DNA of 52,199 nucleotides from Candidatus Sungiibacteriota bacterium (lineage in GTDB: Bacteria > Patescibacteriota > Minisyncoccia > Sungbacterales > HO2-52-23): the NCBI GenBank assembly GCA_016186095.1, contig JACPMG010000003.1, positions 1-52,199 of the forward strand, written 5' to 3'. Positions 5,036-49,941 of the stretch are shown piece after piece. Both the position numbers and the translations under genes were made by a program. The notes beneath the pieces were generated by a model. It made no database searches and was not told the origin of the DNA. It saw only the letters and a program-made list of their open reading frames with translations. Position 1 is the stretch's first letter, and every line of letters starts with the position of its first letter.

Positions 5036-7467
5036 TGTACCTTTTCTATTTATATCTTTTATTGATTTTTGTCATAGTCCTGGCTCTGCTGGCGGTTTTG
5101 ATATTGCGCGGATACGCCCGCCGCGGCCTGATTTCCCGTTCCCTTAATCTGGAGCTTCTTTTGGTAAGGTTTTCCCCTGTAGCACCGTCTCCGCAGGAGC
5201 CGACTATGCAGCAGATCCGGGAGAAGATCGCCCTGATGGAACAATTCTACAGTCACCTGCATTTAATACGCGACAACTGGTGGAGAAAATTGCTTTACGG
5301 CAAGCCGACTTTTTCTTTGGAACTCACTATCCCCTCAATCGGCGAGGAAATTTCATTTTATGTTGCCGTTCCGCGACGGCTCCGTATGGCTGTAGAAAAA
5401 GTTATTCAGGGTATTTTTCCCGATGCGCAGGTTGAAGTTTCGCGCGACTATAATATTTTCAATCCGGAGGGGCAGGCGGTGGGTGCGGGCATAGTTTTAA
5501 AAGAGAATAGATACTATCCCCTGAAAACTTATCAGAAATTAGAGGGTGATCCCATGAAGGAGTTAACCAACGTGTTTACCAAGCTTGCCAAGGAGGGCGA
5601 AGGAGCCGCGTTACAGATTATCGCGCGCCCGGCGCGCAAAAAATGGAGCAGAAAGTTAAAAGATCGCGCCAAAATACTTTTTGGCGGCAAAAAGGCAAAA
5701 GAGAGCGTATTATTGGGAGCCGTGCGCGGAGCAGGGGATTTCACCGGCATGACGCCCGGGGGCCCTGCGCAGGAGAGACCGGAGGAGCTAAAAAAAATAA
5801 CGCCCCTGCAGGAGGAAATCGTGCGGGCGCTGGAGAATAAGGCATCCAAACCTCTTTTTGACGCCAATATACGCATCCTGGCATCAGCAGTAGATGATGC
5901 GCGGGCACGCTCAATCCTGCAGGGATTGACACTCGCTTTTGCTCAGTTTGCCGACCAGAATTTAAACAGTTTTAAAATAATACCCATGGAGGGTAGGTCT
6001 TTAAAAAGTTTTATCTTCAATTTTTCTTTCCGCGGATTTGACGATTACAGAAAAATTATTTTGGGATCGGAGGAGCTGACGTCTATTTTCCATTTCCCCA
6101 ATATCCTTACCGAAACCCCGAAGCTGAAAATTGTGAAAGCGCGCGAAGCGCCCCCGCCGGTAAATGTTCCGCAAGACGGCCTGCTTCTGGGGTATAACGT
6201 ATTTCGCGGAGAAAAAACCGACATTAAGCTGTCGGAAGAGGATCGGCGTAGGCATTTATATATCATCGGGCAGACCGGAACCGGAAAGTCGGTTTTCTTG
6301 GAGAGTATGATTATTCAAGATATACAGGCCGGCAAAGGGGTGTGCGTTATTGACCCGCACGGAGATATGGTGGAGCGTATTTTGGGGTTTGTGCCGCGGC
6401 ATCGAGCGCAGGACGTGGTTTATTTCAACCCCGGAGATGTGGCGCGCCCCATGGGCTTGAACATGCTCGAATACGATCCTAATTTTCCCGAGCAGAAAAC
6501 TTTTATTGTAAACGAACTTCTCTCCATTTTTGACAAACTTTACAATATGTCCATTGCCGGAGGCCCGATGTTTGAGCAGTATTTCCGCAACTCCACGCTT
6601 CTGGTTATGGATGATCCAACGTCGGGCAACACTTTAATCGAAATTGAGCGGGTGCTTACCGATAAGCCTTTTCGTGACCTTAAACTTTCGCGCTCCAACA
6701 ACATCGTGGTGAAAAATTTCTGGACGCAGATTGCGGAAAAAGCCGGAGGAGAAGCATCGCTGAAGGATATGGTGCCTTATATTGCCTCCAAGTTTGATAA
6801 TTTTATTGCGAACGAAATCATGCGTCCCATAATCGCGCAGGAGAAATCCGCTTTTAATTTCCGCGAGGTAATGGATAATCAAAAAATACTTCTGGTCAAT
6901 CTTTCCAAGGGGCGTCTGGGCGATCTGAATTCTTCCCTTATCGGCCTCGTGATCGTGGGCAAGCTCCTGATGGCGGCACTCTCCCGTACCGATCAGCCCG
7001 AGGAGCGCAGAAAAGATTTTTATCTTTATATTGATGAGTTCCAAAACGTTACCACTGATTCTATCGCGACCATCCTCTCGGAGGCGCGAAAATACCGGCT
7101 TGATCTTATCATCACCCATCAATTTATCGGACAGTTGAAAGAAGAAATCAAAAAAGCGGTTTTTGGAAACGTAGGCTCCATGGTTTCTTTCCGGATCGGA
7201 TCGGATGACGGCGAATTTATGGCCAAGCAATATAAACCCGTTTTCTCCGAGCAGGATTTGCTGAATATAGATAACTTCAACTGCTACGTGAAGCTTTTAA
7301 TAAAAGGCCAGACCTCGCCGTCTTTCAGTATGAAGACCTATCCTTCGGGCAAGGGCGAGAAAGAAGTCGCCGAGATGATAAAAGAGATTTCCCGTACCAA
7401 ATACGGCAGGCCGCGAGAAGAAGTGGAGCGGGAGATCATGGAAAAACATCAGAAGCCAAGCTTTTAG
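5035..7467 (+). CDS. VirD4/TraD/TrwB-like type IV coupling-protein-family P-loop ATPase
   Basis: 810 aa with an N-terminal TM segment. Walker A is IIGQTGTGKS and Walker B-like is FYLYIDEFQN, followed by a THQFIGQL block. Confidence 0.75.
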   Translation: MYLFYLYLLLIFVIVLALLAVLILRGYARRGLISRSLNLELLLVRFSPVAPSPQEPTMQQIREKIALMEQFYSHLHLIRDNWWRKLLYGKPTFSLELTIPSIGEEISFYVAVPRRLRMAVEKVIQGIFPDAQVEVSRDYNIFNPEGQAVGAGIVLKENRYYPLKTYQKLEGDPMKELTNVFTKLAKEGEGAALQIIARPARKKWSRKLKDRAKILFGGKKAKESVLLGAVRGAGDFTGMTPGGPAQERPEELKKITPLQEEIVRALENKASKPLFDANIRILASAVDDARARSILQGLTLAFAQFADQNLNSFKIIPMEGRSLKSFIFNFSFRGFDDYRKIILGSEELTSIFHFPNILTETPKLKIVKAREAPPPVNVPQDGLLLGYNVFRGEKTDIKLSEEDRRRHLYIIGQTGTGKSVFLESMIIQDIQAGKGVCVIDPHGDMVERILGFVPRHRAQDVVYFNPGDVARPMGLNMLEYDPNFPEQKTFIVNELLSIFDKLYNMSIAGGPMFEQYFRNSTLLVMDDPTSGNTLIEIERVLTDKPFRDLKLSRSNNIVVKNFWTQIAEKAGGEASLKDMVPYIASKFDNFIANEIMRPIIAQEKSAFNFREVMDNQKILLVNLSKGRLGDLNSSLIGLVIVGKLLMAALSRTDQPEERRKDFYLYIDEFQNVTTDSIATILSEARKYRLDLIITHQFIGQLKEEIKKAVFGNVGSMVSFRIGSDDGEFMAKQYKPVFSEQDLLNIDNFNCYVKLLIKGQTSPSFSMKTYPSGKGEKEVAEMIKEISRTKYGRPREEVEREIMEKHQKPSF

Positions 7468-9281: not shown

Positions 9282-10475
9282 ATGAGCGAACTTGTTCTCT
9301 ATCGCAAATACCGTCCCAAAAGCTTTGAAGAAGTTGTCGGGCAGGAGCATGTGATAGCGGCGATTACCAACGCCATCAGAACGGGCCGTGCGGCTCATGC
9401 TTATTTATTCTCCGGCCCTCGCGGTATAGGTAAGACGACTGTGGCGCGACTTATCGCCAAAGCCATGAATTGTGCCAATTTGTCCAAACTTTCTGAAGGA
9501 AAGTTTGCTGACAAATTGAGCACCCGCCGAAGCCTTGGCGAAGGCGGGTTTCCTATACCCTGTGATGCCTGCGATCTTTGCAAAAGTTTTAATGAGGGTA
9601 GGGCGTTTGATTTAATTGAAATCGATGCCGCGTCCAACAGGGGTATTGACGAGATACGAGAGCTTCGCGAGGGCGTGCGTTTTGTCCCGTCGCAGGGAAA
9701 ATACAAGACCTACATAATTGACGAGGTGCATCAGCTGACCAAAGAGGCCTTTAACGCGCTTCTGAAAACCCTGGAGGAGCCGCCCTCGCACGCGGTCTTT
9801 GTCTTGGCCACCACCGAGCTTGAGAAAGTTCCGGCAACAATTGTTTCGCGCACCCAGCACTTTGATTTTCGAAGGCCGAATGTTTCGCAAATCGTAAATC
9901 GTCTGACGCATATCGCAAAAAAGGAAAAAGTAGAGCTTGAACCGGACGCGGCGCACTTAATTGCGCTTGCCGCGGAGGGTTCTTTGCGTGATGCTGAAAG
10001 TATTTTGGGGCAGGTTATGGCCGTGGAGGATAAAGAGATTACGCGTCGCGAAGTGGAAAGCATCCTCGGGCTTCCCCGCAGGGAGTCGGCCAAAAAAATG
10101 TTTGAACTGGTGGCCAAAAAAGACGCTTCCGGGGCCCTTACTCTGGTGCAGGAGCTTCACGATGCCGGCCACGACCTAACTTATTTTTCCAAACTTCTCA
10201 TGCAGTATTTCCGCAGTGCGCTTTTTTTGAAAACGGATCCTGAACTTAAAAAATTCGTGATGGGTGAGATGCTGACGGATGAGATTGATTGTATCACGGC
10301 TCATCTTTCGCTCTTTCAGGCGGGTGATCTTTCGCGGGCGGTAAATATCATTTTTGACAATCTGCAATCTTTCAAAAAAACTCCTATTCCTCAACTTCCG
10401 CTTGAACTTACGGTGGTGGAGCTGATTGCGGGATCGGAGAAAAACGCCTATGGAGAAAAGATCAAAGTTATCTAA
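9282..10475 (+). CDS. dnaX: DNA polymerase III subunit gamma/tau (short form)
   Basis: YRPKSFEEVVGQEHV, Walker A GPRGIGKTT, IIDEVHQL and SRTQHF motifs, 397 aa. Confidence 0.9.
   Translation: MSELVLYRKYRPKSFEEVVGQEHVIAAITNAIRTGRAAHAYLFSGPRGIGKTTVARLIAKAMNCANLSKLSEGKFADKLSTRRSLGEGGFPIPCDACDLCKSFNEGRAFDLIEIDAASNRGIDEIRELREGVRFVPSQGKYKTYIIDEVHQLTKEAFNALLKTLEEPPSHAVFVLATTELEKVPATIVSRTQHFDFRRPNVSQIVNRLTHIAKKEKVELEPDAAHLIALAAEGSLRDAESILGQVMAVEDKEITRREVESILGLPRRESAKKMFELVAKKDASGALTLVQELHDAGHDLTYFSKLLMQYFRSALFLKTDPELKKFVMGEMLTDEIDCITAHLSLFQAGDLSRAVNIIFDNLQSFKKTPIPQLPLELTVVELIAGSEKNAYGEKIKVI
9485..9548. repeat. In-frame hairpin insertions in the dnaX zinc-module linker
   Basis: CAAACTTTC-TGAAG-GAAAGTTTG (9485-9507) plus CCCGCCGAAGCCTTGGCGAAGGCGGG (9523-9548). 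The 26-mer recurs exactly at 23579-23604. Confidence 0.75.
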
Positions 10476-10723: not shown

Positions 10724-10966
10724 ATGTTCAGCAAATTTGTAGAGCAAAAATTTAGATCCGCTCGGTATAAGATTTTGAAAGACGGAAGTTACTTTGGCGA
10801 AATCCCGGGATTTAAGGGGGTTTGGGCCAATGCCAAAAGTTTAGAGGATTGTCGCCAGGAGCTGCGCGAGGTTTTGGAGGAATGGTTGCTCTTGAAAGTA
10901 AAACATAGCGAATCGGTGCCAGGATTTAGATTTAGATTTGATCGGCGCGAGCTCGTGAAGAAATAA
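10724..10966 (+). CDS. hicB: HicB-family antitoxin (N-terminal HicB fold)
   Basis: 80 aa. The block YFGEIPGFKGVWANAKSLEDCRQELREVLEEWL is typical of HicB/UPF0150. A hicA-like gene follows 2 nt later. Confidence 0.65.
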   Translation: MFSKFVEQKFRSARYKILKDGSYFGEIPGFKGVWANAKSLEDCRQELREVLEEWLLLKVKHSESVPGFRFRFDRRELVKK

Positions 10967-10968
10967 CT

Positions 10969-11183
10969 ATGCCGCAGGAGATCTCTTGGAGGAAGTTGGT
11001 TCAGAAATTCCGCAACTTAGGATTTGATGGCCCCTATTCCGGCGGCCGTCATTTGTTTATGGTTAAGGGCGATTAAAGGTACATATTCCAAATCCGCACG
11101 ATGGAGATATCTCGCGGCAGCTTCTTTCAGAAATCCTTCGTCAAGCAGACATTTCTTCGAAAGAATGGAGGATGCATAAATAA
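10969..11183 (+). pseudogene. hicA: HicA-family toxin gene with a frameshift
   Basis: Frame A gives MPQEISWRKLVQKFRNLGFDGPYSGGRHLFMVKGD, then TAA at 11074-11076. The HicA C-terminus LKVHIPNPHDGDISRQLLSEILRQADISSKEWRMHK continues in the -1 frame from 11073 to TAA at 11181-11183. Confidence 0.65.
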
Positions 11184-11240
11184 TTTATTGCGGGGTAGTG
11201 AAGTAGTATCACGCTTGCCGGCGTCTGTCCTACACAAAAC

Positions 11241-11311
11241 TCCGGGCTCGTCTAATGGTAGGACGGTGGCCTTTGAAGCCATTAATCTACGTTCGAATCG
11301 TAGGCCCGGAG
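11241..11311 (+). tRNA. tRNA-Gln (anticodon UUG)
   Basis: Hand-folded cloverleaf: acceptor TCCGGGC/GCCCGGA, anticodon loop CTTTGAA, T-loop TTCGAAT. No encoded CCA. Confidence 0.85.
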
Positions 11312-11348
11312 TTTTGTGCGGGATAGCAACTAATTTAGGTCCGTTTTG

Positions 11349-11373
11349 TCCTTCCGAAGCCAAAGGCGAAGGA
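11349..11373. repeat. GC-rich hairpin of the GCC-AAA-GGC family
   Basis: TCCTTC..GCC-AAA-GGC..GAAGGA. The inner hairpin matches the TCAGCC-AAA-GGCTGA hairpin in the tRNA-like pseudogene. Confidence 0.5.
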
Positions 11374-11439
11374 GGGAGTCCTGGCCCGGCAGAAATCTTG
11401 AGATAAGGTCATAGCCATAGGAACGTATAGTAAACACAT

Positions 11440-12804: not shown

Positions 12805-12954
12805 TGGCCAGCAGCCTTGCGACCCCTACCGAGGCAGGTCAGGCGCCACAAAACGTATGGCGTCTAGGCCGCATGTTTTGTATTTAGGCTTGATTTTTTA
12901 ATATCGATATACTACAAATGGAGTAGTTCCACTAACCTGAATGTGGAGGTTTTT

Positions 12955-13964: not shown

Positions 13965-14048
13965 ATTGGCCATACCGAGACCCCCGTTTTTATTAAACCT
14001 GCCTGCCGGCAGGTCTCAATAGAGGAAGAGAAATAACTCTTTAATATT

Positions 14049-14243
14049 ATGGAGCAAGAAATTATACAAAAACTCGCGGAGATTGAGAAAAAGCTTGAGG
14101 AAAATACGAAGATAGTTCGGCAAATGCGACAGTATTTTTTCTGGACGCTTATTATTTCCCTGGCGGTGATAGTCCTCCCCCTGATCGGACTTATTTTTAT
14201 CCTTCCCCAATTTATCAGCACCTACGGCAATCTGGGGATTTAG
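14049..14243 (+). CDS. Hypothetical small coiled-coil plus TM protein
   Basis: 64-aa ORF with no homology recognisable by eye. Confidence 0.4.
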   Translation: MEQEIIQKLAEIEKKLEENTKIVRQMRQYFFWTLIISLAVIVLPLIGLIFILPQFISTYGNLGI

Positions 14244-15273: not shown

Positions 15274-17140
15274 GGAAATTAGAAATATAGCTATAATCGC
15301 CCATGTTGACCACGGGAAAACCACTCTGACCGATGCCATGCTGCGTCAGACCGGCGTTACCAAAGAAGGTGTTTCCATGGATTCCAATACGCTTGAACTT
15401 GAGCGCGGCATTACGATTTATTCCAAAAACGCGGCTATTTTTTATCCTTCGACAAGCACTTCAGCCATGAGCTCAGTGTCGAATGGCTCAGGACGTCCCG
15501 TAACAAAAATAAATATCGTGGACACTCCGGGACACGCGGATTTTGGATCTGAGGTGGAGCGAGTGCTCCGCTCCATAGATTCCGTACTTTTGGTGGTTGA
15601 CGCGCAGGAGGGGCCGATGCCGCAAACCCGCTTTGTCTTAAAAAAATCGCTTGAGCTTGGCCTGAAGCCGATCGTGATTATCAATAAAATTGATAAAGCC
15701 GCAGCCGATCCGGCGCAATGCGCAGAGCAGGTGCTGGAGCTTTTTTTGGAGCTGGGGGCTGACGATAGCCAAGCGAATTTTCCGATCGTATATGCGAACG
15801 GCAGGGCGGGCATTGCCAAGAAAAAACTTGCTGATGAGTCAAAGGATTTGACGCCGCTGCTGGATACGATTTTGGAGCATGTGCCATCGGCATCCTTGCC
15901 GGAATTATCGTCGCGGCCTCTTCGTTTTCAGCCCTTTAATCTCGCCTATGATAATTTTCTGGGACGCATGGCCGTGGGAAGGGTTTATGAAGGCGTGGTG
16001 CGGCCGGGCATGCAGGTTTTTGTGAAGAAAGACGGCGATGCATCCGCACAGGCAGGCGAAATTTCTTCCGGGAAAATAACTAAAGTTTTTACTTTCAGGG
16101 GCTTGGAAAGAATAGAGGCCGAGGAGGCAGGAGCGGGAGATATAGCGCTTATTGCGGGACTTGAGGGTATTGATATTGGCGTGACCGTTACTACCGATAA
16201 GGAGGCGTTGCCCCTGCCCGCAATTGCGGTTGATGAGCCGACCATTGCGCTTACGTTTCTGGTAAATAATTCTCCGCTTGGAGGACGAGAGGGAAAATTT
16301 GTCACCTCGCGCCAGATCAGGGAATACCTTGAGCGGGAATTGCAGGTGAACGTGGGACTTCGCGTTGACTTTACTTCAGCGGATAGTTTCCGGGTATACG
16401 GAAGAGGGGAGCTTCATATAGCTATCTTGCTGGAAAATATGCGGCGGGCCGGATACGAGGTCCAGGTTTCGCAGCCGCAAGTGATTATTCGCACGGAAAA
16501 CGGGGTGCGGCTGGAGCCTTTTGAGGAAGTGATTGTGGATACTCCCGCAGAATTTCAGGGTGTCATAATTGAGCGCTTGGGGCCACGCGGATTTGTTATG
16601 AAAAATATCTTTCAGAAGGGCGATCTTGTGCGACTTTCGTTTGAAGGGCCCACGCGAGGGCTTCTGGGATATCGCAACCAATTTGTAATTGATACGAAAG
16701 GGGAGGGCATTTTTTCTTCGCGCGTCCTCGGCTTCAGGCCTATGGTCGGAGAAATTTATAAACGCGCGGTGGGCTCCATGATTTCTATGGCGGCCGGAAA
16801 GGCCCTAGGATTTGCTCTTTGGGGCTTGCAGGAGCGCGGCACCCTTTATATAAGTCCCGGAACCGAAGTATATATAGGCATGGTCATAGGCAATACTTCC
16901 AAGGGCGAGGAGATGTCGGTGAATCCGACCAAAGGAAAACAGCTTACCAATGTCCGCGCCGCCGCATCGGATGAGGCGATTGATTTGGTGCCGCCGTTTA
17001 AACTCACCATTGAGCGCGGCCTTGAAGTTGTGGCCGAAGACGAATATCTTGAAGTTACTCCCCAAAGCGTTCGTCTGCGGAAGCAAAACTTGACCGAAGC
17101 GGAGCGCACGAAAGCGAAAAGACAAAAAACATATGACTAA
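15272..17140 (+). CDS. typA: Translational GTPase TypA/BipA
   Basis: AHVDHGKTTL (G1), DTPGHADF (G3), NKID (G4), and a BipA-type C-terminal region. The start could also be ATG 15263 or GTG 15254. Confidence 0.9.
   Translation: MEIRNIAIIAHVDHGKTTLTDAMLRQTGVTKEGVSMDSNTLELERGITIYSKNAAIFYPSTSTSAMSSVSNGSGRPVTKINIVDTPGHADFGSEVERVLRSIDSVLLVVDAQEGPMPQTRFVLKKSLELGLKPIVIINKIDKAAADPAQCAEQVLELFLELGADDSQANFPIVYANGRAGIAKKKLADESKDLTPLLDTILEHVPSASLPELSSRPLRFQPFNLAYDNFLGRMAVGRVYEGVVRPGMQVFVKKDGDASAQAGEISSGKITKVFTFRGLERIEAEEAGAGDIALIAGLEGIDIGVTVTTDKEALPLPAIAVDEPTIALTFLVNNSPLGGREGKFVTSRQIREYLERELQVNVGLRVDFTSADSFRVYGRGELHIAILLENMRRAGYEVQVSQPQVIIRTENGVRLEPFEEVIVDTPAEFQGVIIERLGPRGFVMKNIFQKGDLVRLSFEGPTRGLLGYRNQFVIDTKGEGIFSSRVLGFRPMVGEIYKRAVGSMISMAAGKALGFALWGLQERGTLYISPGTEVYIGMVIGNTSKGEEMSVNPTKGKQLTNVRAAASDEAIDLVPPFKLTIERGLEVVAEDEYLEVTPQSVRLRKQNLTEAERTKAKRQKTYD
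15446..15502. repeat. 57-nt (19-codon) palindromic in-frame insertion in the typA G-domain
   Basis: PSTSTSAMSSVSNGSGRPV lies between AIFY and TKINIVDTPGH, where E. coli BipA has only ND. Nested inverted repeats: TTCGACA (15448-15454)/TGTCGAA (15477-15483) and AGCCAT/ATGGCT. Confidence 0.7.
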
Positions 17141-45243: not shown

Positions 45244-46423
45244 GAAAAAAATCATAAAAAAGAAAAAACCGGTCAGGCGCCAGACAGCGGATGTTAAGAA
45301 GGGGTTGGGCGAGAAACCGCCGTCCAGGAAAGAATCGGCCGAGGAGGCGGAGAAAAAAATTCAGCTGCTTATGAAGAAAGGCCGCGAGCGGGGGTTTGTC
45401 ACTTATTCTGAAATTCTTTATTATTTTCCGACGATTGAGGAGGATATTATGCTTTTGGAGGATTTGTACGCGCGGCTGGAGCGCGAAAATATTCAAATAC
45501 TTGAGTCGAAAGAATTTATTGAAGAAGGAGAAAAAGAAGAAAAAGTCTCCTTGAAAAGAAAAAAACGCGAGGCGGCGCTTGACTTTGAGCAAATGTCGCA
45601 GGATTCCGTGCAGATGTATTTGCGTGAAATCGGGCGTATAGCGCTCCTTACCGGGGACGAGGAGAAAGAGCTTGCCAAGCGGATTGAAAAGGGAGATGAG
45701 GAGGCGCGAAAGAAACTGACACAGGCAAATTTGCGCCTGGTGGTGTCCATTGCCAAGCGCTATGTCGGACGCTCTGCGCATTTAACGCTTCTTGATTTGA
45801 TCCAGGAGGGTAATTTGGGACTTTTTAAGGCAGTAGAAAAATTCGATTACCGCCGGGGGTATAAATTTTCTACCTACGCCACCTGGTGGATTAGGCAGGC
45901 CATCACGCGCGCCTTGGCGGATCAGGCGCGGACTATCCGTATACCGGTGCATATGGTGGAAACAATTTCCAAATATCAGCAAGTCAAGCGCCGACTGGTG
46001 CAAGAACTGGGCCGGGAGCCTTTATCGGAAGAAATTGCTGCCGAGATGAATTTGGAAGTTGAAAAAGTGCATCATCTGGAAAAAATAGAACAGGATACGG
46101 TGTCGCTTGAAGCACCGGTGGGGGATGATGATGAAGATTCGGTGCTCGGCGAATTTATCGTGGACGAAAAAACGCTTAGCCCTTCGCAGGTTGCCGCGCG
46201 GCGGCTGCTGCGCGATCAGCTGAATCATATAATACGGGAGTTAACACCGCGCGAGCAGAAAATTCTTTCCATGCGTTTTGGGCTGGATGATGGTATAACC
46301 CATACTCTGGAAGAAGTGGGCAAGGAGTTTGGAGTGACCAGAGAGCGTATCAGACAAATTGAAGCCAAGGCGCTCGAAAGAATCAGACTCCACGAGACGG
46401 CGAAAAAATTTGAACAATATTGA
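45224..46423 (+). CDS. rpoD: Primary RNA polymerase sigma factor
   Basis: Region 2 ([13 protein letters not shown]), region 3, and region 4.2 ([20 protein letters not shown]). Overlaps the dnaG end. Confidence 0.9.
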
Positions 46424-46466
46424 AATTTGTGGTAAATTCTGAATACATTTCAGCGTAGCGAAGTGG

Positions 46467-46494
46467 GCTGAAAGCAAACTGCTTTGCTTTCAGC
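46467..46494 (+). terminator. Perfect 12-bp hairpin after rpoD
   Basis: GCTGAAAGCAAA-CTGC-TTTGCTTTCAGC. No T-tract. Confidence 0.5.
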
Positions 46495-46524
46495 GGGCGA
46501 TTACAATAGAAACCAGTTGAAACC

Positions 46525-46665
46525 TCCGGCGTAGCTCAGTGGTAGACCTGCCTGCCGGTAGGCAGGGCGGCTCGCTGTTCCAATCGGAGGATGATCCGCC
46601 TCTGGCGGAAACGAGAAGGTCCCAGGTTCTCAGCCAAAGGCTGATTCGCCTCCGGCGAAGAATCC
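46525..46665 (+). pseudogene. tRNA-Asn-like gene carrying three hairpin insertions and lacking its 3' end
   Basis: After removing 46547-46566, 46580-46609 and 46630-46659, the remaining 55 nt differ at one position from the body of the intact tRNA-Asn at 46700-46771. Confidence 0.6.
46624..46665. repeat. 42-bp direct repeat, left copy
   Basis: AGGTTCTCAGCCAAAGGCTGATTCGCCTCCGGCGAAGAATCC, identical to 47040-47081. Confidence 0.9.
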
Positions 46666-46699
46666 ATAACAATTTTAATTTCATTGTAAAACCATTTTC

Positions 46700-46771
46700 T
46701 CCCCAGTAGCTCAGCGGTAGAGCGGCTCGCTGTTAACGAGAAGGTCCCAGGTTCGAATCCTGGCTGGGGAG
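46700..46771 (+). tRNA. tRNA-Asn (anticodon GUU)
   Basis: Hand fold: acceptor TCCCCAG/CTGGGGA, anticodon loop CTGTTAA, T-loop TTCGAAT. Flanked by a perfect 14-bp leader/trailer inverted repeat. Confidence 0.9.
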
Positions 46772-46798
46772 AAAATGGTTTTACTATTTTTTATACAG

Positions 46799-47041
46799 AT
46801 GTTTTTCATATATGTGTTGCAAAGTATTTCATATGGAACGCGTTATGCCGGTAGTACTGATAATATAGAAAAAAGATTGAGCGAACATAATAAGGGCCGT
46901 TGCCGATATACCAGCGGACGCAAGCCATGGGAGATTGTATATCGGGAAAAATTTGAGTCAAGGGGTGAAGCAATGAAGCGCGAAAAATTTCTAAAATCGG
47001 GACAAGGAAGAAAATGGCTAGACGATAATTTATCCGGTTAG
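46799..47041 (+). CDS. GIY-YIG nuclease family protein (UPF0213-like)
   Basis: MFFIYVLQS..YGTRYAGSTDNIEKRLSEHNKG...KPWEIVYREKFESRGEAMKREKFLKS. About 80 aa from ATG 46799. Confidence 0.8.
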   Translation: MFFIYVLQSISYGTRYAGSTDNIEKRLSEHNKGRCRYTSGRKPWEIVYREKFESRGEAMKREKFLKSGQGRKWLDDNLSG

Positions 47042-47081
47042 GTTCTCAGCCAAAGGCTGATTCGCCTCCGGCGAAGAATCC
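47040..47081. repeat. 42-bp direct repeat, right copy
   Basis: Identical to 46624-46665. Overlaps the GIY-YIG stop codon. Followed by a tRNA-3'-end-like TGCCCGGGGAGG. Confidence 0.9.
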
Positions 47082-47208
47082 TGCCCGGGGAGGTTTGAAT
47101 CGAAACAAAAGTCGTCCAGGGACGAGTGGCTCGCGGGCCAAAGCGAAAGTGCGGCGACCATAATCTTTTTTTCTTGAACCGCCGGAGAATCGGTGGTTTA
47201 ATGTAATC

Positions 47209-49941
47209 ATGACTGTTGCTCGCGCTTTTCTTTTATTACATGTCGTCATTTTGTGTCTGTCTTTCCTTGCTATTTTTGCGGCAGCTTCAAGCGGCGGCCT
47301 TTTTATCGTTCAAACCAACGGCCCTTCGGCCGGAGCCATAAAGCACGGTTTAGGGTTTTCTCCGGCAAAGCCCGATATTATTTATGTTGATAGATACAAG
47401 TCAACGGACGGCGGCAATACTTGGCGCGAATTTTCTTTGCCTGTAGACGAAGCCGTTCGGGCGATAGCGGTTGACCCCAAAAATGCCGACATAATTTATC
47501 TTGTCGTAAACCATACTATCTATAAAAGTTTTGACGGTGCGGGGTCTTGGCAAAAACTCATCGCTATTGATCCACGAGGCGATAACCCGACCGTCTCCGC
47601 CCTGGCTGTTAATCCGGACAACAGCAACATTGTCTATGCTGGCACAACCCACGGCGATTTGTACAAAACAGCCGATGGCGGCTTAAGCTGGCAGAGTATC
47701 AGCGGTCGGCTTGGCACGAACGCGCCTGTCAGCAGGATTGTTTTCAATCCTCAAAATACCCAAGAAATATATGTCGGCGCCGGAAGCTGGTATTTAAGCG
47801 CGTTAGTCGGGCTCCCCAAAAAGGGCGGAGGGTTGCTAGTTTCAAGAGATGGCGGAGAAAATTTTAAAAAAATTGAGAGCGACTTTAAAAACGATCTGGT
47901 GCAAGATGTTGATGTTTGGGGCAAGACAATTTATGCCAGCGTCCACCACGCGCCCGACTCCAATGAGGAATGGCGCAGAATATACAAATCCGAAGACGGC
48001 GGCGTATCCTGGAAAACCGTTTTGGATAAAAGAATTTTAACTCACGCGGCGGTTAATCCCAAAAACGCGAATCATATTGTCGTATCCGGAGCGGACAACG
48101 AGCCGTTTTATGTCTCAAAAGACGGCGGCGTATCCTGGAAAACAGTGGGCCTTAGCTCGTCTGAACCAATCCGCTACACCCACGAGCTGGAAATAGTGGA
48201 CGACAACCATGTCTATGCTCTTGAATATTACAAGCCATTTATGAAATCGTCGGACGGCGGCTCAAGCTGGCGCTGGTCGTCGGACGGAATAAAAAACAGC
48301 TCCGTTTACGCTCTTCGGATTCATCCGGCTAACAGAAATAAAGTTTTAGCCGGAACCGGAGATGGAGCTTTGCACACCACCTTAGACGGCGGTAAAATTT
48401 GGAAAAGATTTTTTGGCTCAAATCTTGAGGGTGGCAGTATAGCGGCGATAGAATTTAATCCCGCTAGTTCGGCCACTCTTTATTTTGGCGTGACCGGAGC
48501 TACGGACAGAGCGACCGGCAGGTATTTTGGTTCTCCGTGGCGCGATACGGGATTGTATGCGTCAGACGACAGCGGATCAAGCTGGAGTAAAATGCGGGGA
48601 CTGGCCCATCCTTACGGCAGTGGCGACAACCAGCTGGAAGTCTACGACATATTTATCCATCCGCAAAATCCGAATTTAATGCTGGTTGGTACCGCTTCGG
48701 AGGGTATTTATAGGAGTGAAGACGGCGGCAAAACGTGGCGGAACGCTAACAACGGCATCCCCAAAGAAGGATTTTATTGGAATTTAAATCTAAAGCCGGA
48801 AGGCAACACGCCCCGGGAAAGATGCGAAGGGGAATTCAATAAATATAAAGCGGGACAAAAGTTTGATACGGGATGTTTTTATTACGCCACCCATACCAGC
48901 ATGAAGCTCGCGGTTAGACCCAGTAATGCGGATGAAATATGGTACACGACGCTTAACGGCGTTTTTGTATCCCGCGATTCGGGTCGGTCATGGCAGTGGC
49001 TTTCGGATGATCTTAAAAATATTCATGTCCATTTTATGGCTTTTGATCCGCAAGACCCAGATATAATTTATTTGGGCACTCATCAGGGAGCGATAGACAG
49101 CCATGGCAACGTCGCCGATTCTTCCAAGGGTTTACTGATTTCGCGCAATGGAGGAAAAAATTGGTCGCAGACTGCAAGTGGCCCCGGTCAGGGGCATGAC
49201 ATACGGGCGATTGCCGTCAATCCGGAAGATCCTAATATGGTGGTGGTCGGCACCGAAGATCCGCTGTATGTCAGCAGGGACAAAGGCAAAACCTGGACGA
49301 AACTCGCGACCCCAAAATTAAAAGAAGCCGACAGAATACAAATAGACAATTCGGCTAAAATAATTTATATGGGAACGGCTCAAGCGGGCGTGTGGCGGGG
49401 GATAATAGATTATTCGTCATCTAGTCCCTCCCTTATGGAAGTGACCGGAGTAACGGCTCCGGCCGCGGCTAAGGCCGGCGATAATTTTTCTGTGGTAGTT
49501 TCTATTGATAATATAGGCGGTAGGGCGGGATCAATGCCGGTCAATGTAAAAATAGGTGAATTTAATGATGGAAAAACCGCCGATCTTTCTTTTACGGATC
49601 AGAAAACGGTGAACTTTTCCGCGTCCGTAAAAGAAAAGGGTGAATATGATATTTTTGTGAACGGCCAAAGCTACGGGAAAATAACTATCGGCGGCGGTTC
49701 TATTTTTTCGGGGTTATTTGAAAACGAAAAGGGCGAAAGCAAGGGCGAGGAGCAGGCGGCGAGCCGCGAGGAAAAAACGGGGGAGGACGGAAATATTTTG
49801 AAATCAGAAGAGACGGGATATTTTGGGAAATTATTCTGGCCGGTTTTCTGGATTATTTTTGCCGCCACGACTATTTTGGTCGGCCTAAAAATAGCGCCCA
49901 AAATATTCCGCGCCATTTTTAAACGAACCGGCAACAAGTAG
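47209..49941 (+). CDS. BNR/Asp-box repeat (sialidase/Vps10-type beta-propeller) surface protein with a C-terminal TM anchor
   Basis: 910 aa with a signal peptide. About 13 SxDxGxTW-type Asp boxes (STDGGNTW, SEDGGVSW, SKDGGVSW, SRDKGKTW...). Confidence 0.8.
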   Translation: MTVARAFLLLHVVILCLSFLAIFAAASSGGLFIVQTNGPSAGAIKHGLGFSPAKPDIIYVDRYKSTDGGNTWREFSLPVDEAVRAIAVDPKNADIIYLVVNHTIYKSFDGAGSWQKLIAIDPRGDNPTVSALAVNPDNSNIVYAGTTHGDLYKTADGGLSWQSISGRLGTNAPVSRIVFNPQNTQEIYVGAGSWYLSALVGLPKKGGGLLVSRDGGENFKKIESDFKNDLVQDVDVWGKTIYASVHHAPDSNEEWRRIYKSEDGGVSWKTVLDKRILTHAAVNPKNANHIVVSGADNEPFYVSKDGGVSWKTVGLSSSEPIRYTHELEIVDDNHVYALEYYKPFMKSSDGGSSWRWSSDGIKNSSVYALRIHPANRNKVLAGTGDGALHTTLDGGKIWKRFFGSNLEGGSIAAIEFNPASSATLYFGVTGATDRATGRYFGSPWRDTGLYASDDSGSSWSKMRGLAHPYGSGDNQLEVYDIFIHPQNPNLMLVGTASEGIYRSEDGGKTWRNANNGIPKEGFYWNLNLKPEGNTPRERCEGEFNKYKAGQKFDTGCFYYATHTSMKLAVRPSNADEIWYTTLNGVFVSRDSGRSWQWLSDDLKNIHVHFMAFDPQDPDIIYLGTHQGAIDSHGNVADSSKGLLISRNGGKNWSQTASGPGQGHDIRAIAVNPEDPNMVVVGTEDPLYVSRDKGKTWTKLATPKLKEADRIQIDNSAKIIYMGTAQAGVWRGIIDYSSSSPSLMEVTGVTAPAAAKAGDNFSVVVSIDNIGGRAGSMPVNVKIGEFNDGKTADLSFTDQKTVNFSASVKEKGEYDIFVNGQSYGKITIGGGSIFSGLFENEKGESKGEEQAASREEKTGEDGNILKSEETGYFGKLFWPVFWIIFAATTILVGLKIAPKIFRAIFKRTGNK

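Follow-up and report, generated by a model that had tools for sequence, protein, structure and literature searches.

Live tRNA genes with long paired flanks are nested in dead copies of themselves in a Candidatus Sungiibacteriota genome

The tRNA-Asn and tRNA-Gln genes described here are both live and lie nested within dead copies of the gene concerned; each is enclosed by a leader arm and a trailer arm that pair with each other. Both lie in the window, by which we mean the whole stretch of DNA that was analysed (52,199 nucleotides of contig JACPMG010000003.1, Candidatus Sungiibacteriota assembly GCA_016186095.1). We favour, with some reserve, the explanation that the arms serve the spare tRNA of a tRNA-splitting, homing-type selfish cassette as an RNA clamp or processing stem.

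Paired arms and nesting at tRNA-Asn and tRNA-Gln

The window holds three tRNA genes (Asn, Gln, and Ser). The live tRNA-Asn(GUU) (46700–46771, plus strand) is identified by Rfam (RF00005, 68.7 bits) and by ARAGORN, and in the whole-genome tRNA lists this armed copy is the only tRNA-Asn of the assembly. Its leader arm, GTAAAACCATTTTC (46686–46699, plus strand), is the exact complement of its trailer arm, GAAAATGGTTTTAC (46771–46784, plus strand), which has the discriminator as its first base and a T-rich tract after it. A sequence check thus bears out the original prediction that the two flanks are exact 14-nt reverse complements forming a continuous 21-bp helix. The discriminator G46771 pairs with C46699, and therefore the 7-bp acceptor stem runs on into the arms without interruption. 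In the minimum-energy RNA fold the arms are paired, and a cloverleaf is combined with the 21-bp helix (−51.2 kcal/mol, z = −7.05).

The same design had been claimed for tRNA-Gln with 8 bp, and the pairing of 11233–11240 with 11311–11318 is found as described. The leader arm of the armed tRNA-Gln(UUG) (11233–11240, plus strand) has a weaker continuation at 11224–11232, the tRNA itself occupies 11241–11311 (plus strand; Rfam, 59.6 bits), and the trailer arm (11311–11318, plus strand) continues more weakly at 11319–11327. The helix comprises the 8 pairs, one A.C mismatch, and about 7 further pairs (z = −8.8), and the leader arm has homologues in the 13-bp arms that tRNA-Gln cassettes of relatives carry. 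CCA is encoded in neither of the two armed tRNAs of the window. A second tRNA-Gln(UUG) copy, on contig C9, is unarmed and has its CCA encoded. As had been noted, tRNA-Ser has no arms; its best run is 10 pairs (about 3 past the 7-bp stem), 7 of them Watson-Crick.

The arm pair had also been reported to recur at 12847–12881, as CACAAAAC...GTTTTGT, with no tRNA between. This part of the prediction needs correction. The sequence forms an imperfect hairpin between genes, with a T run after it, and is probably a terminator. The 8-mer and the 7-mer that it has in common with the tRNA-Gln arms can be put down to chance; since an 8-mer is expected about 1.6 times per window by chance, a relation to the tRNA-Gln arms is not established.

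At the Asn locus, two exact copies of a 42-nt direct repeat (46624–46665 and 47040–47081) bound an inserted unit of 374 nt (46666–47039). The identity of the repeats stops at both ends with no further extension. The unit consists, in order, of a 20-nt spacer, the leader arm, tRNA-Asn, the trailer arm, 14 nt, and a GIY-YIG nuclease gene of 80 codons (46799–47041, plus strand; from the ORF list, Pfam PF01541, 55.6 bits). Because the gene starts 14 nt past the trailer arm, it lies outside the arms. The insertion site of the unit is the T loop of an older tRNA-Asn copy, and parts of this target gene flank the unit, namely the 42-nt direct repeat and the older tRNA-Asn halves. The outer halves are present in relatives as well.

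The 5′ part of the older, dead tRNA-Asn (46525–46665, plus strand) carries three hairpin insertions and is cut in the T loop by the live unit, and its 3′ end (47082–47092, plus strand) comprises the T-stem and acceptor strand with discriminator G. With the insertions removed, the 5′ part and 47082–47092 together give 72 nt, and nearly all positions outside the acceptor stem match the live tRNA. The acceptor strands of the older copy no longer pair. The older copy has a decayed leader arm (46514–46524, plus strand), a near-complement of its trailer arm (47092–47102, plus strand). These contain the two sequences for which near-complementarity around a split pseudo-tRNA had been predicted, TTGAAACC (46517–46524) and GGTTTGAA (47092–47099), and the predicted pair exists; the live tRNA-Asn and the nuclease gene lie inside and separate the halves by about 570 nt. 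The leader arm of the older copy is homologous to the perfect arms of two relatives (G007 and G021), and its trailer arm is identical to that of G021.

The older copy is itself located in a D-loop cassette common to relatives. The outermost shell consists, on the 5′ side (46446–46516, plus strand), of a tRNA 5′-end remnant and the conserved 5′ module of the cassette (a short motif and a hairpin) and, on the 3′ side (47103–47170, plus strand), of the conserved 3′ module and a decayed tRNA remnant. The 5′ module aligns upstream of armed tRNA-Asn and tRNA-Val(CAC) in at least six genera, and in at least six genera both modules flank an armed tRNA-Asn or tRNA-Val(CAC) that is inserted into the D loop of an outer tRNA with matching identity. 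Some relatives have the nest; in several others (loci L005, L009, and L016) tRNA-Asn is unarmed and has no interruption.

The hairpin insertions of the dead tRNA-Asn lie at 46547–46566, 46580–46609, and 46630–46659 and represent 20- and 30-nt repeats. These repeats occupy fixed places within dead tRNAs, and their words have dozens of copies genome-wide. The 30-nt repeat lies between anticodon-loop positions 36 and 37 of dead tRNA-Asn and dead tRNA-Lys and also in the T loop, and the 20-nt unit interrupts the 3′ D stem of the dead copy. Such hairpin repeats also lie in dead copies on contigs C18 (about 16300–16330) and C23 (about 270–330) of this genome (G000). In five relatives (G034, G001, G005, G030, and G014), ARAGORN intron calls mark tRNA-Asn genes with anticodon-loop insertions of 216–552 nt (L024, L028, L031, L032, and L033, respectively); the interrupted tRNA-Asn of L032 also carries 13-bp arms.

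The live tRNA-Gln is nested in the same manner. An outer tRNA-Gln-like 5′ remnant, read from the sequence (11189–11213, plus strand), comprises an acceptor strand and a D arm. The outer 3′ remnant (11333–11392, plus strand) comprises a T arm split by a 27-nt hairpin (11350–11376) and then an acceptor strand, which pairs with 11189–11195 at 6 of 7 positions. The layout matches that of two loci in relatives (L122 and L098).

Nesting extends to other armed tRNAs of this genome. Lys-CUU is placed between parts 1–19 and 38–74 of a tRNA-Lys, Glu-UUC between parts 1–16 and 51–74 of a tRNA-Glu, and Val-GAC inside the D loop of a tRNA-Val(GAC); Val-CAC adjoins a tRNA-Val anticodon arm. The armed Thr-CGU, Thr-UGU, Cys, and Lys-UUU are nested as well. 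In the order as a whole, 38 of 64 armed tRNAs but only 10 of 74 unarmed ones have exact 12-mers from their own body at a distance of no more than 400 nt; the test is strict and misses nested cases of this genome, so that the true nested share is higher. Of these fragments, 5′ pieces lie upstream and 3′ pieces downstream of the tRNA. A D-arm frame with a 9-bp GC-rich stem encloses tRNA-Ile(GAU) at L023 (G025) and tRNA-Val(GAC) on contig C12 of G000 (10915–11095); a single conserved cassette backbone thus holds differing tRNA cargo.

Three of the five GIY-YIG genes of the genome abut tRNAs. In relatives, nuclease homologues are on the strand of the tRNA at 14 of 15 loci, the gene is 12–40 nt from the tRNA, upstream or downstream, at about nine of them, and it is outside the arms at every related locus. 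The tblastn nuclease matches at L122 and L146 were left out, as the query frame overlapped a tRNA. Most armed tRNAs have no adjoining nuclease gene. From the gene neighbourhood we infer a putative nuclease activity and homing.

Two known kinds of interruption, a group I intron and an archaeal bulge-helix-bulge intron, were considered for the Asn locus and rejected: the helix has no bulges, and an Rfam search of 46300–47300 at E values up to 1 gave no match except tRNA.

Arms across the genome, the order, and the phylum

The genome is that of a small-genome CPR/Patescibacteria bacterium (680 kb in 32 contigs, 92% complete, tmRNA present). A survey of its other tRNA loci, proposed along with the original prediction as its test, indicates that arms are not confined to the two cases above and occur genome-wide and order-wide. 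Exact complements of at least 9 nt are present in 8 of 40 cognate leader–trailer pairs of this genome, compared with 1.8% of non-cognate pairs, and the chance of an in-register 14-nt exact complement is about 4e-9 per tRNA. Continuous in-register extensions of the acceptor stem are found in four of the 40 tRNAs (Asn, 14 bp; Val-CAC, 12 bp; Lys-CUU, 11 bp; Gln-UUG, 8 bp). Six more tRNAs (Cys, Val-GAC, Glu-UUC, Thr-CGU, Thr-UGU, and one Lys-UUU) have strong leader–trailer duplexes with a spacer or bulge between, which brings the armed tRNAs to about 10 of 40. The arms of Thr-UGU and Glu-UUC are offset, indicating that continuity with the acceptor stem is not universal.

A covariance model built from arm, tRNA, and arm was used to search further genomes. 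Every one of the 62 genomes of the order gave high-scoring matches; of a phylum-wide sample of 150 other genomes, 23 did so too. Among 180 tRNAs of the order the extension is bimodal, with 0–3 bp in 97 and 8–22 bp (median 12) in 71; the armed collection was gathered with a model that rewards arms, and therefore the two classes are visible in these numbers and their frequencies are not derivable from them. The bimodal lengths and the recurrence across genomes rule out a chance origin of the arms. CCA is encoded in four of the 71 armed tRNAs. Arm positions 3–5 are AU-rich (17–18% GC pairs), a feature of ordinary leaders as well.

The pairing is kept as the sequence changes. Arms of tRNA-Asn in relatives are perfect over 8–15 bp, and their sequence varies by genus. 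Close pairs of genomes differ by compensating double changes (G007 and G021, by one double change; G002 and G057), and both sides have changed in 14 of 14 arm pairs, the rows having been selected for the presence of arms. Each family of arms belongs to one tRNA type and is retained from genus to genus (Gln, Thr-UGU, Val, and Ile). Variation of the arm sequence with retention of the pairing points to a constraint at the RNA level.

The mismatches in the arms bear on the same question. In 84 distinct arm sets we count 1021 Watson-Crick, 18 G.U-type, 6 A.C-type, and 8 other pairs, a non-Watson-Crick position being counted only when three Watson-Crick pairs come next. An RNA constraint on the tRNA strand would predict an excess of G.U over A.C, whereas a strand-symmetric DNA constraint or neutral decay would not. 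The excess (binomial p = 0.011) rests on 24 pairs from related, non-independent genomes, and we therefore take it as moderate support for the RNA constraint. In addition, 79 of the 84 arm sets have base −1 paired with the discriminator.

Seven of the 12 G.U-type pairs in the order-level set fall at one arm position, as U(−6).G counted from the acceptor stem. They occur in cassettes of various tRNA types (L017, L048, L074, L085, L100, L104, and L126). The position could be a recognition feature, or it could reflect shared descent of arm families.

Three other features of the tRNA genes were seen in the survey. The 3′ end of tRNA-Arg(UCG) has an exact 18-nt copy about 120 nt downstream of the gene (G000, contig C18, 15907–15924), and the CCA-adding enzyme gene is located just upstream of this tRNA on the same contig. 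All three tRNA-Pro genes have the same 25-nt leader hairpin abutting +1, with no pairing to the trailer (G000, contig C11, about 5203–5227; C13, about 9704–9728; C18, about 14045–14069, minus strand). The assembly as a whole yielded no genes for tRNA-His, Phe, Ile-GAU, Gly-GCC, Ala-GGC, Ser-UGA/GCU, and Arg-ACG/UCU/CCU; these roughly ten missing species exceed what 8% incompleteness would explain, and thus some may be on unassembled repeats or too interrupted to be called.

Maturation of armed tRNAs and competing explanations

Asn-GUU, Val-CAC, and Lys-CUU are present in this assembly as armed copies only. Therefore, armed tRNAs must work, and their precursors must be matured. The original prediction pointed out that a fully paired leader is not typical of RNase P substrates and named RNase III and the RNase P protein as enzymes to look for. 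Both are found. RNase III is encoded on contig C28 (PF14622, 135.8 bits), RnpA on contig C24, and the RNase P RNA on contig C13 (175.5 bits). Since RNase P RNA and RnpA of the normal kind are present, no exotic RNase P is required, and we rejected this candidate. RNase Y, RNase J, a beta-CASP nuclease, and the CCA-adding enzyme are encoded as well.

The usual enzymes for releasing tRNAs from long transcripts are RNase E/G and RNase Z. RNase E/G was not found in this genome, and a search for RNase Z equivalogs gave none here, in the order (62 genomes), or in the phylum sample (151 genomes). Lack of RNase Z thus characterises the whole group, with arms or without, and does not track the arms; we therefore discarded loss of RNase Z as their correlate. 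The beta-CASP nuclease (453 residues; G000, contig C9, 8299–9657) is encoded about 1 kb downstream of a Met-Glu-Gln-Arg tRNA cluster. The families that it matches best, with scores below their cut-offs, are archaeal aCPSF1-like and Cas14-type models. It is a candidate for the 3′-end nuclease in a lineage in which RNase Z was not found.

Pairing of the leader with the discriminator and beyond hinders bacterial RNase P until it is unwound (PMC9433436). How an armed precursor would be opened is part of the explanation we favour, in which the homing mechanism, co-transcription, the clamp role, and the enzyme that opens the helix are what we infer. The cassette would be a selfish, homing-type element whose nuclease cuts the intact tRNA gene. 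Repair of the break would copy the cassette in, with the outer tRNA halves as homology arms, and the spare tRNA supplied by the cassette would let the cell survive. The transcript would then hold the live tRNA between near-identical dead halves and would often be fused to the nuclease mRNA. By bringing the live tRNA's own ends together, the arms would make it a self-contained folding and processing unit. Maturation would open or cut the helix: RNase III might cut the arms, with trimming after, or RNase P might unwind the AU-rich part of the helix adjoining the tRNA. A 3′ nuclease and the CCA-adding enzyme would complete the process. We hold the role of RNase III as first cutter only tentatively within this composite. 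A more specific proposal is that, in a lineage lacking RNase E/G and RNase Z, Asn-GUU, Val-CAC, and Lys-CUU are matured by an rRNA-like route, in which a double-strand-specific cut of the helix is the obligatory first step and the helix has evolved so that the cassette delivers a working tRNA from inside its target; we consider this conceivable but doubtful.

A double-strand-specific processing step was one of the two options offered originally, and it can also be put as a rival explanation: the arms would be chiefly the substrate of such a nuclease, with RNase III cleavage as the obligatory first step and the nesting incidental. A substrate of RNase III is about two turns of uninterrupted double-stranded RNA. 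Arm and acceptor stem together span 15–24 bp (21 at Asn), and the helix generally exceeds 20 bp only when the stacked T stem is counted; so counted, it reaches 20–29 bp, near the size need of the enzyme. RNase III is encoded in the genome, the helix is unbroken from the acceptor stem, RNase E/G and RNase Z were not found, and a fully paired leader hinders RNase P (PMC9433436), all of which fit this account. Furthermore, a clamp needs no strict continuity with the acceptor stem; the continuity suits a helix-measuring enzyme better and counts against the explanation we favour. However, the arms track nesting closely (38/64 versus 10/74), three-quarters of the tRNAs of this genome are unarmed yet matured by the same enzymes, and RNase Z is missing phylum-wide with or without arms. 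Thus, an account in which nesting is incidental is unlikely.

The other option offered originally was that the tRNAs are embedded in palindromic mobile units, and more generally the arms might act in DNA, as inverted-repeat borders of a mobile tRNA unit or as a cruciform for a nuclease or recombination. The mobile part of this option is in agreement with the data, as the tRNAs are nested in broken copies of the same gene, often beside a GIY-YIG gene, in cassettes that look mobile. The genome is also rich in small palindromic repeats that insert into genes, three of them at 46547–46659, and at two loci the tRNA lies in the loop of a hairpin family that is also found tRNA-free. The palindromic part does not hold, because the palindrome is not the border of the unit. 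At the Asn locus the 42-nt direct repeat bounds the unit and the nuclease gene is outside the arms, which bracket only the tRNA, indicating that the arms are not the ends of the element. The arms also vary from tRNA to tRNA and among cassettes of one genome, leaving no common recognition site, and the 18 G.U-type against 6 A.C-type pairs are unexpected under a strand-symmetric DNA constraint. A role in DNA is accordingly quite improbable. A transposon or miniature inverted-repeat element was rejected in particular, since the four continuous arm pairs are unrelated in sequence and do not lie at unit ends.

It has to be considered as well that the arms are neutral, the acceptor-stem inverted repeat seeding template switching and the palindrome extending into the flanks. 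Fold-back copying would give arms that start exactly at the acceptor stem and are almost entirely Watson-Crick (97% here), and break repair would be expected at loci targeted by a nuclease. A by-product of this kind is hard to reconcile with arm families that are inherited across genera and drift yet remain paired, with an arm length that is bounded (8–17 bp) and not open-ended, with a base −1 that matches the functionally fixed discriminator (79/84 arm sets), or with the G.U bias, and we give it very little credence. Finally, an intrinsic terminator after the tRNA, made of the extended helix and a T tract, is suggested by the run of six T after the trailer arm at the Asn locus and was rejected as next to impossible, because a run of at least four T within 12 nt of the arm follows 3 of 71 armed compared with 25 of 93 unarmed tRNAs and the same-strand nuclease gene is often directly next.

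Implications and comparison with known systems

If the explanation of the arms as a clamp for the spare tRNA of a homing-type cassette holds, selfish cassettes with a spare tRNA routinely overwrite tRNA genes in a large bacterial branch, and the sole copy of several tRNAs in the cell is a cassette product, made from a precursor that resembles a poor RNase P substrate. Two questions would become testable, namely how a homing-type element lives inside an essential and tiny RNA gene, and how tRNA ends are formed in bacteria without RNase E/G and RNase Z. For annotation, the consequence is that tRNA remnants which are nested or interrupted by hairpins will wrongly be called extra or pseudo tRNAs. 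In the literature on CPR tRNA insertions, nested tRNAs, and GIY-YIG genes beside tRNAs, we found no description of this layout, and the paper on CPR rRNA insertions does not mention tRNA.

The arms resemble the leader–trailer stems of rRNA operons (for example, PMC10250234), in which flanks pair over a long range and enclose the mature RNA. In both, the pairing is kept by covariation, and RNase III is encoded here. The arms differ from these stems in that a single tRNA is enclosed, the helix is continuous with the acceptor stem, and only cassette copies have it. In addition, the rRNA stems are processed by RNase III, whereas RNase III cleavage of the arms is only predicted.

Two further systems have a lengthened acceptor stem. 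In leader–RCCA pairing of bacterial pre-tRNAs, the leader pairs with the discriminator and beyond, and the pairing is an anti-determinant that RNase P must unwind (Zhu et al. 2022, PMC9433436). There, 2–4 pairs are a kinetic handicap; here, 8–17 perfect pairs are conserved, usually without an encoded CCA. In human MALAT1 mascRNA, leader and trailer extend the acceptor stem within a longer transcript, and this stem is required for efficient processing (Torabi et al. 2021, PMC8457004). Unlike the arms, the mascRNA stem is eukaryotic, requires a bulged A, and serves 3′-end formation of the upstream RNA (PMC8457004). Moreover, mascRNA is not a real tRNA and is not part of a mobile cassette, whereas a real tRNA within a cassette is enclosed here.

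As for the nuclease gene, the free-standing homing endonuclease SegB of phage T4 is likewise encoded by a small GIY-YIG gene in a tRNA gene cluster, and the gene is expected to be inherited through cleavage of the rival allele and copying of the flanks (PMC2330249). SegB does not lie inside a split tRNA gene and has no clamped spare copy of its target; the elements described here are on a bacterial chromosome, and their nuclease is putative.

Integrative elements at tRNA genes restore the displaced 3′ end, and only this end, by site-specific recombination. The cassettes resemble them in that damage to the tRNA gene is offset by the element's own tRNA sequence. They differ in having no integrase and in carrying a complete tRNA with a helix of its own, nested in the D, anticodon, or T loop.

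In none of the systems compared is a small nuclease gene combined with a complete, clamped tRNA that lies nested within its own gene. The present analysis adds the unit borders at the Asn locus, which enclose the arms and leave the nuclease gene beyond them, the survey of order and phylum, the comparison of G.U with A.C pairs, and the inventory of processing enzymes.
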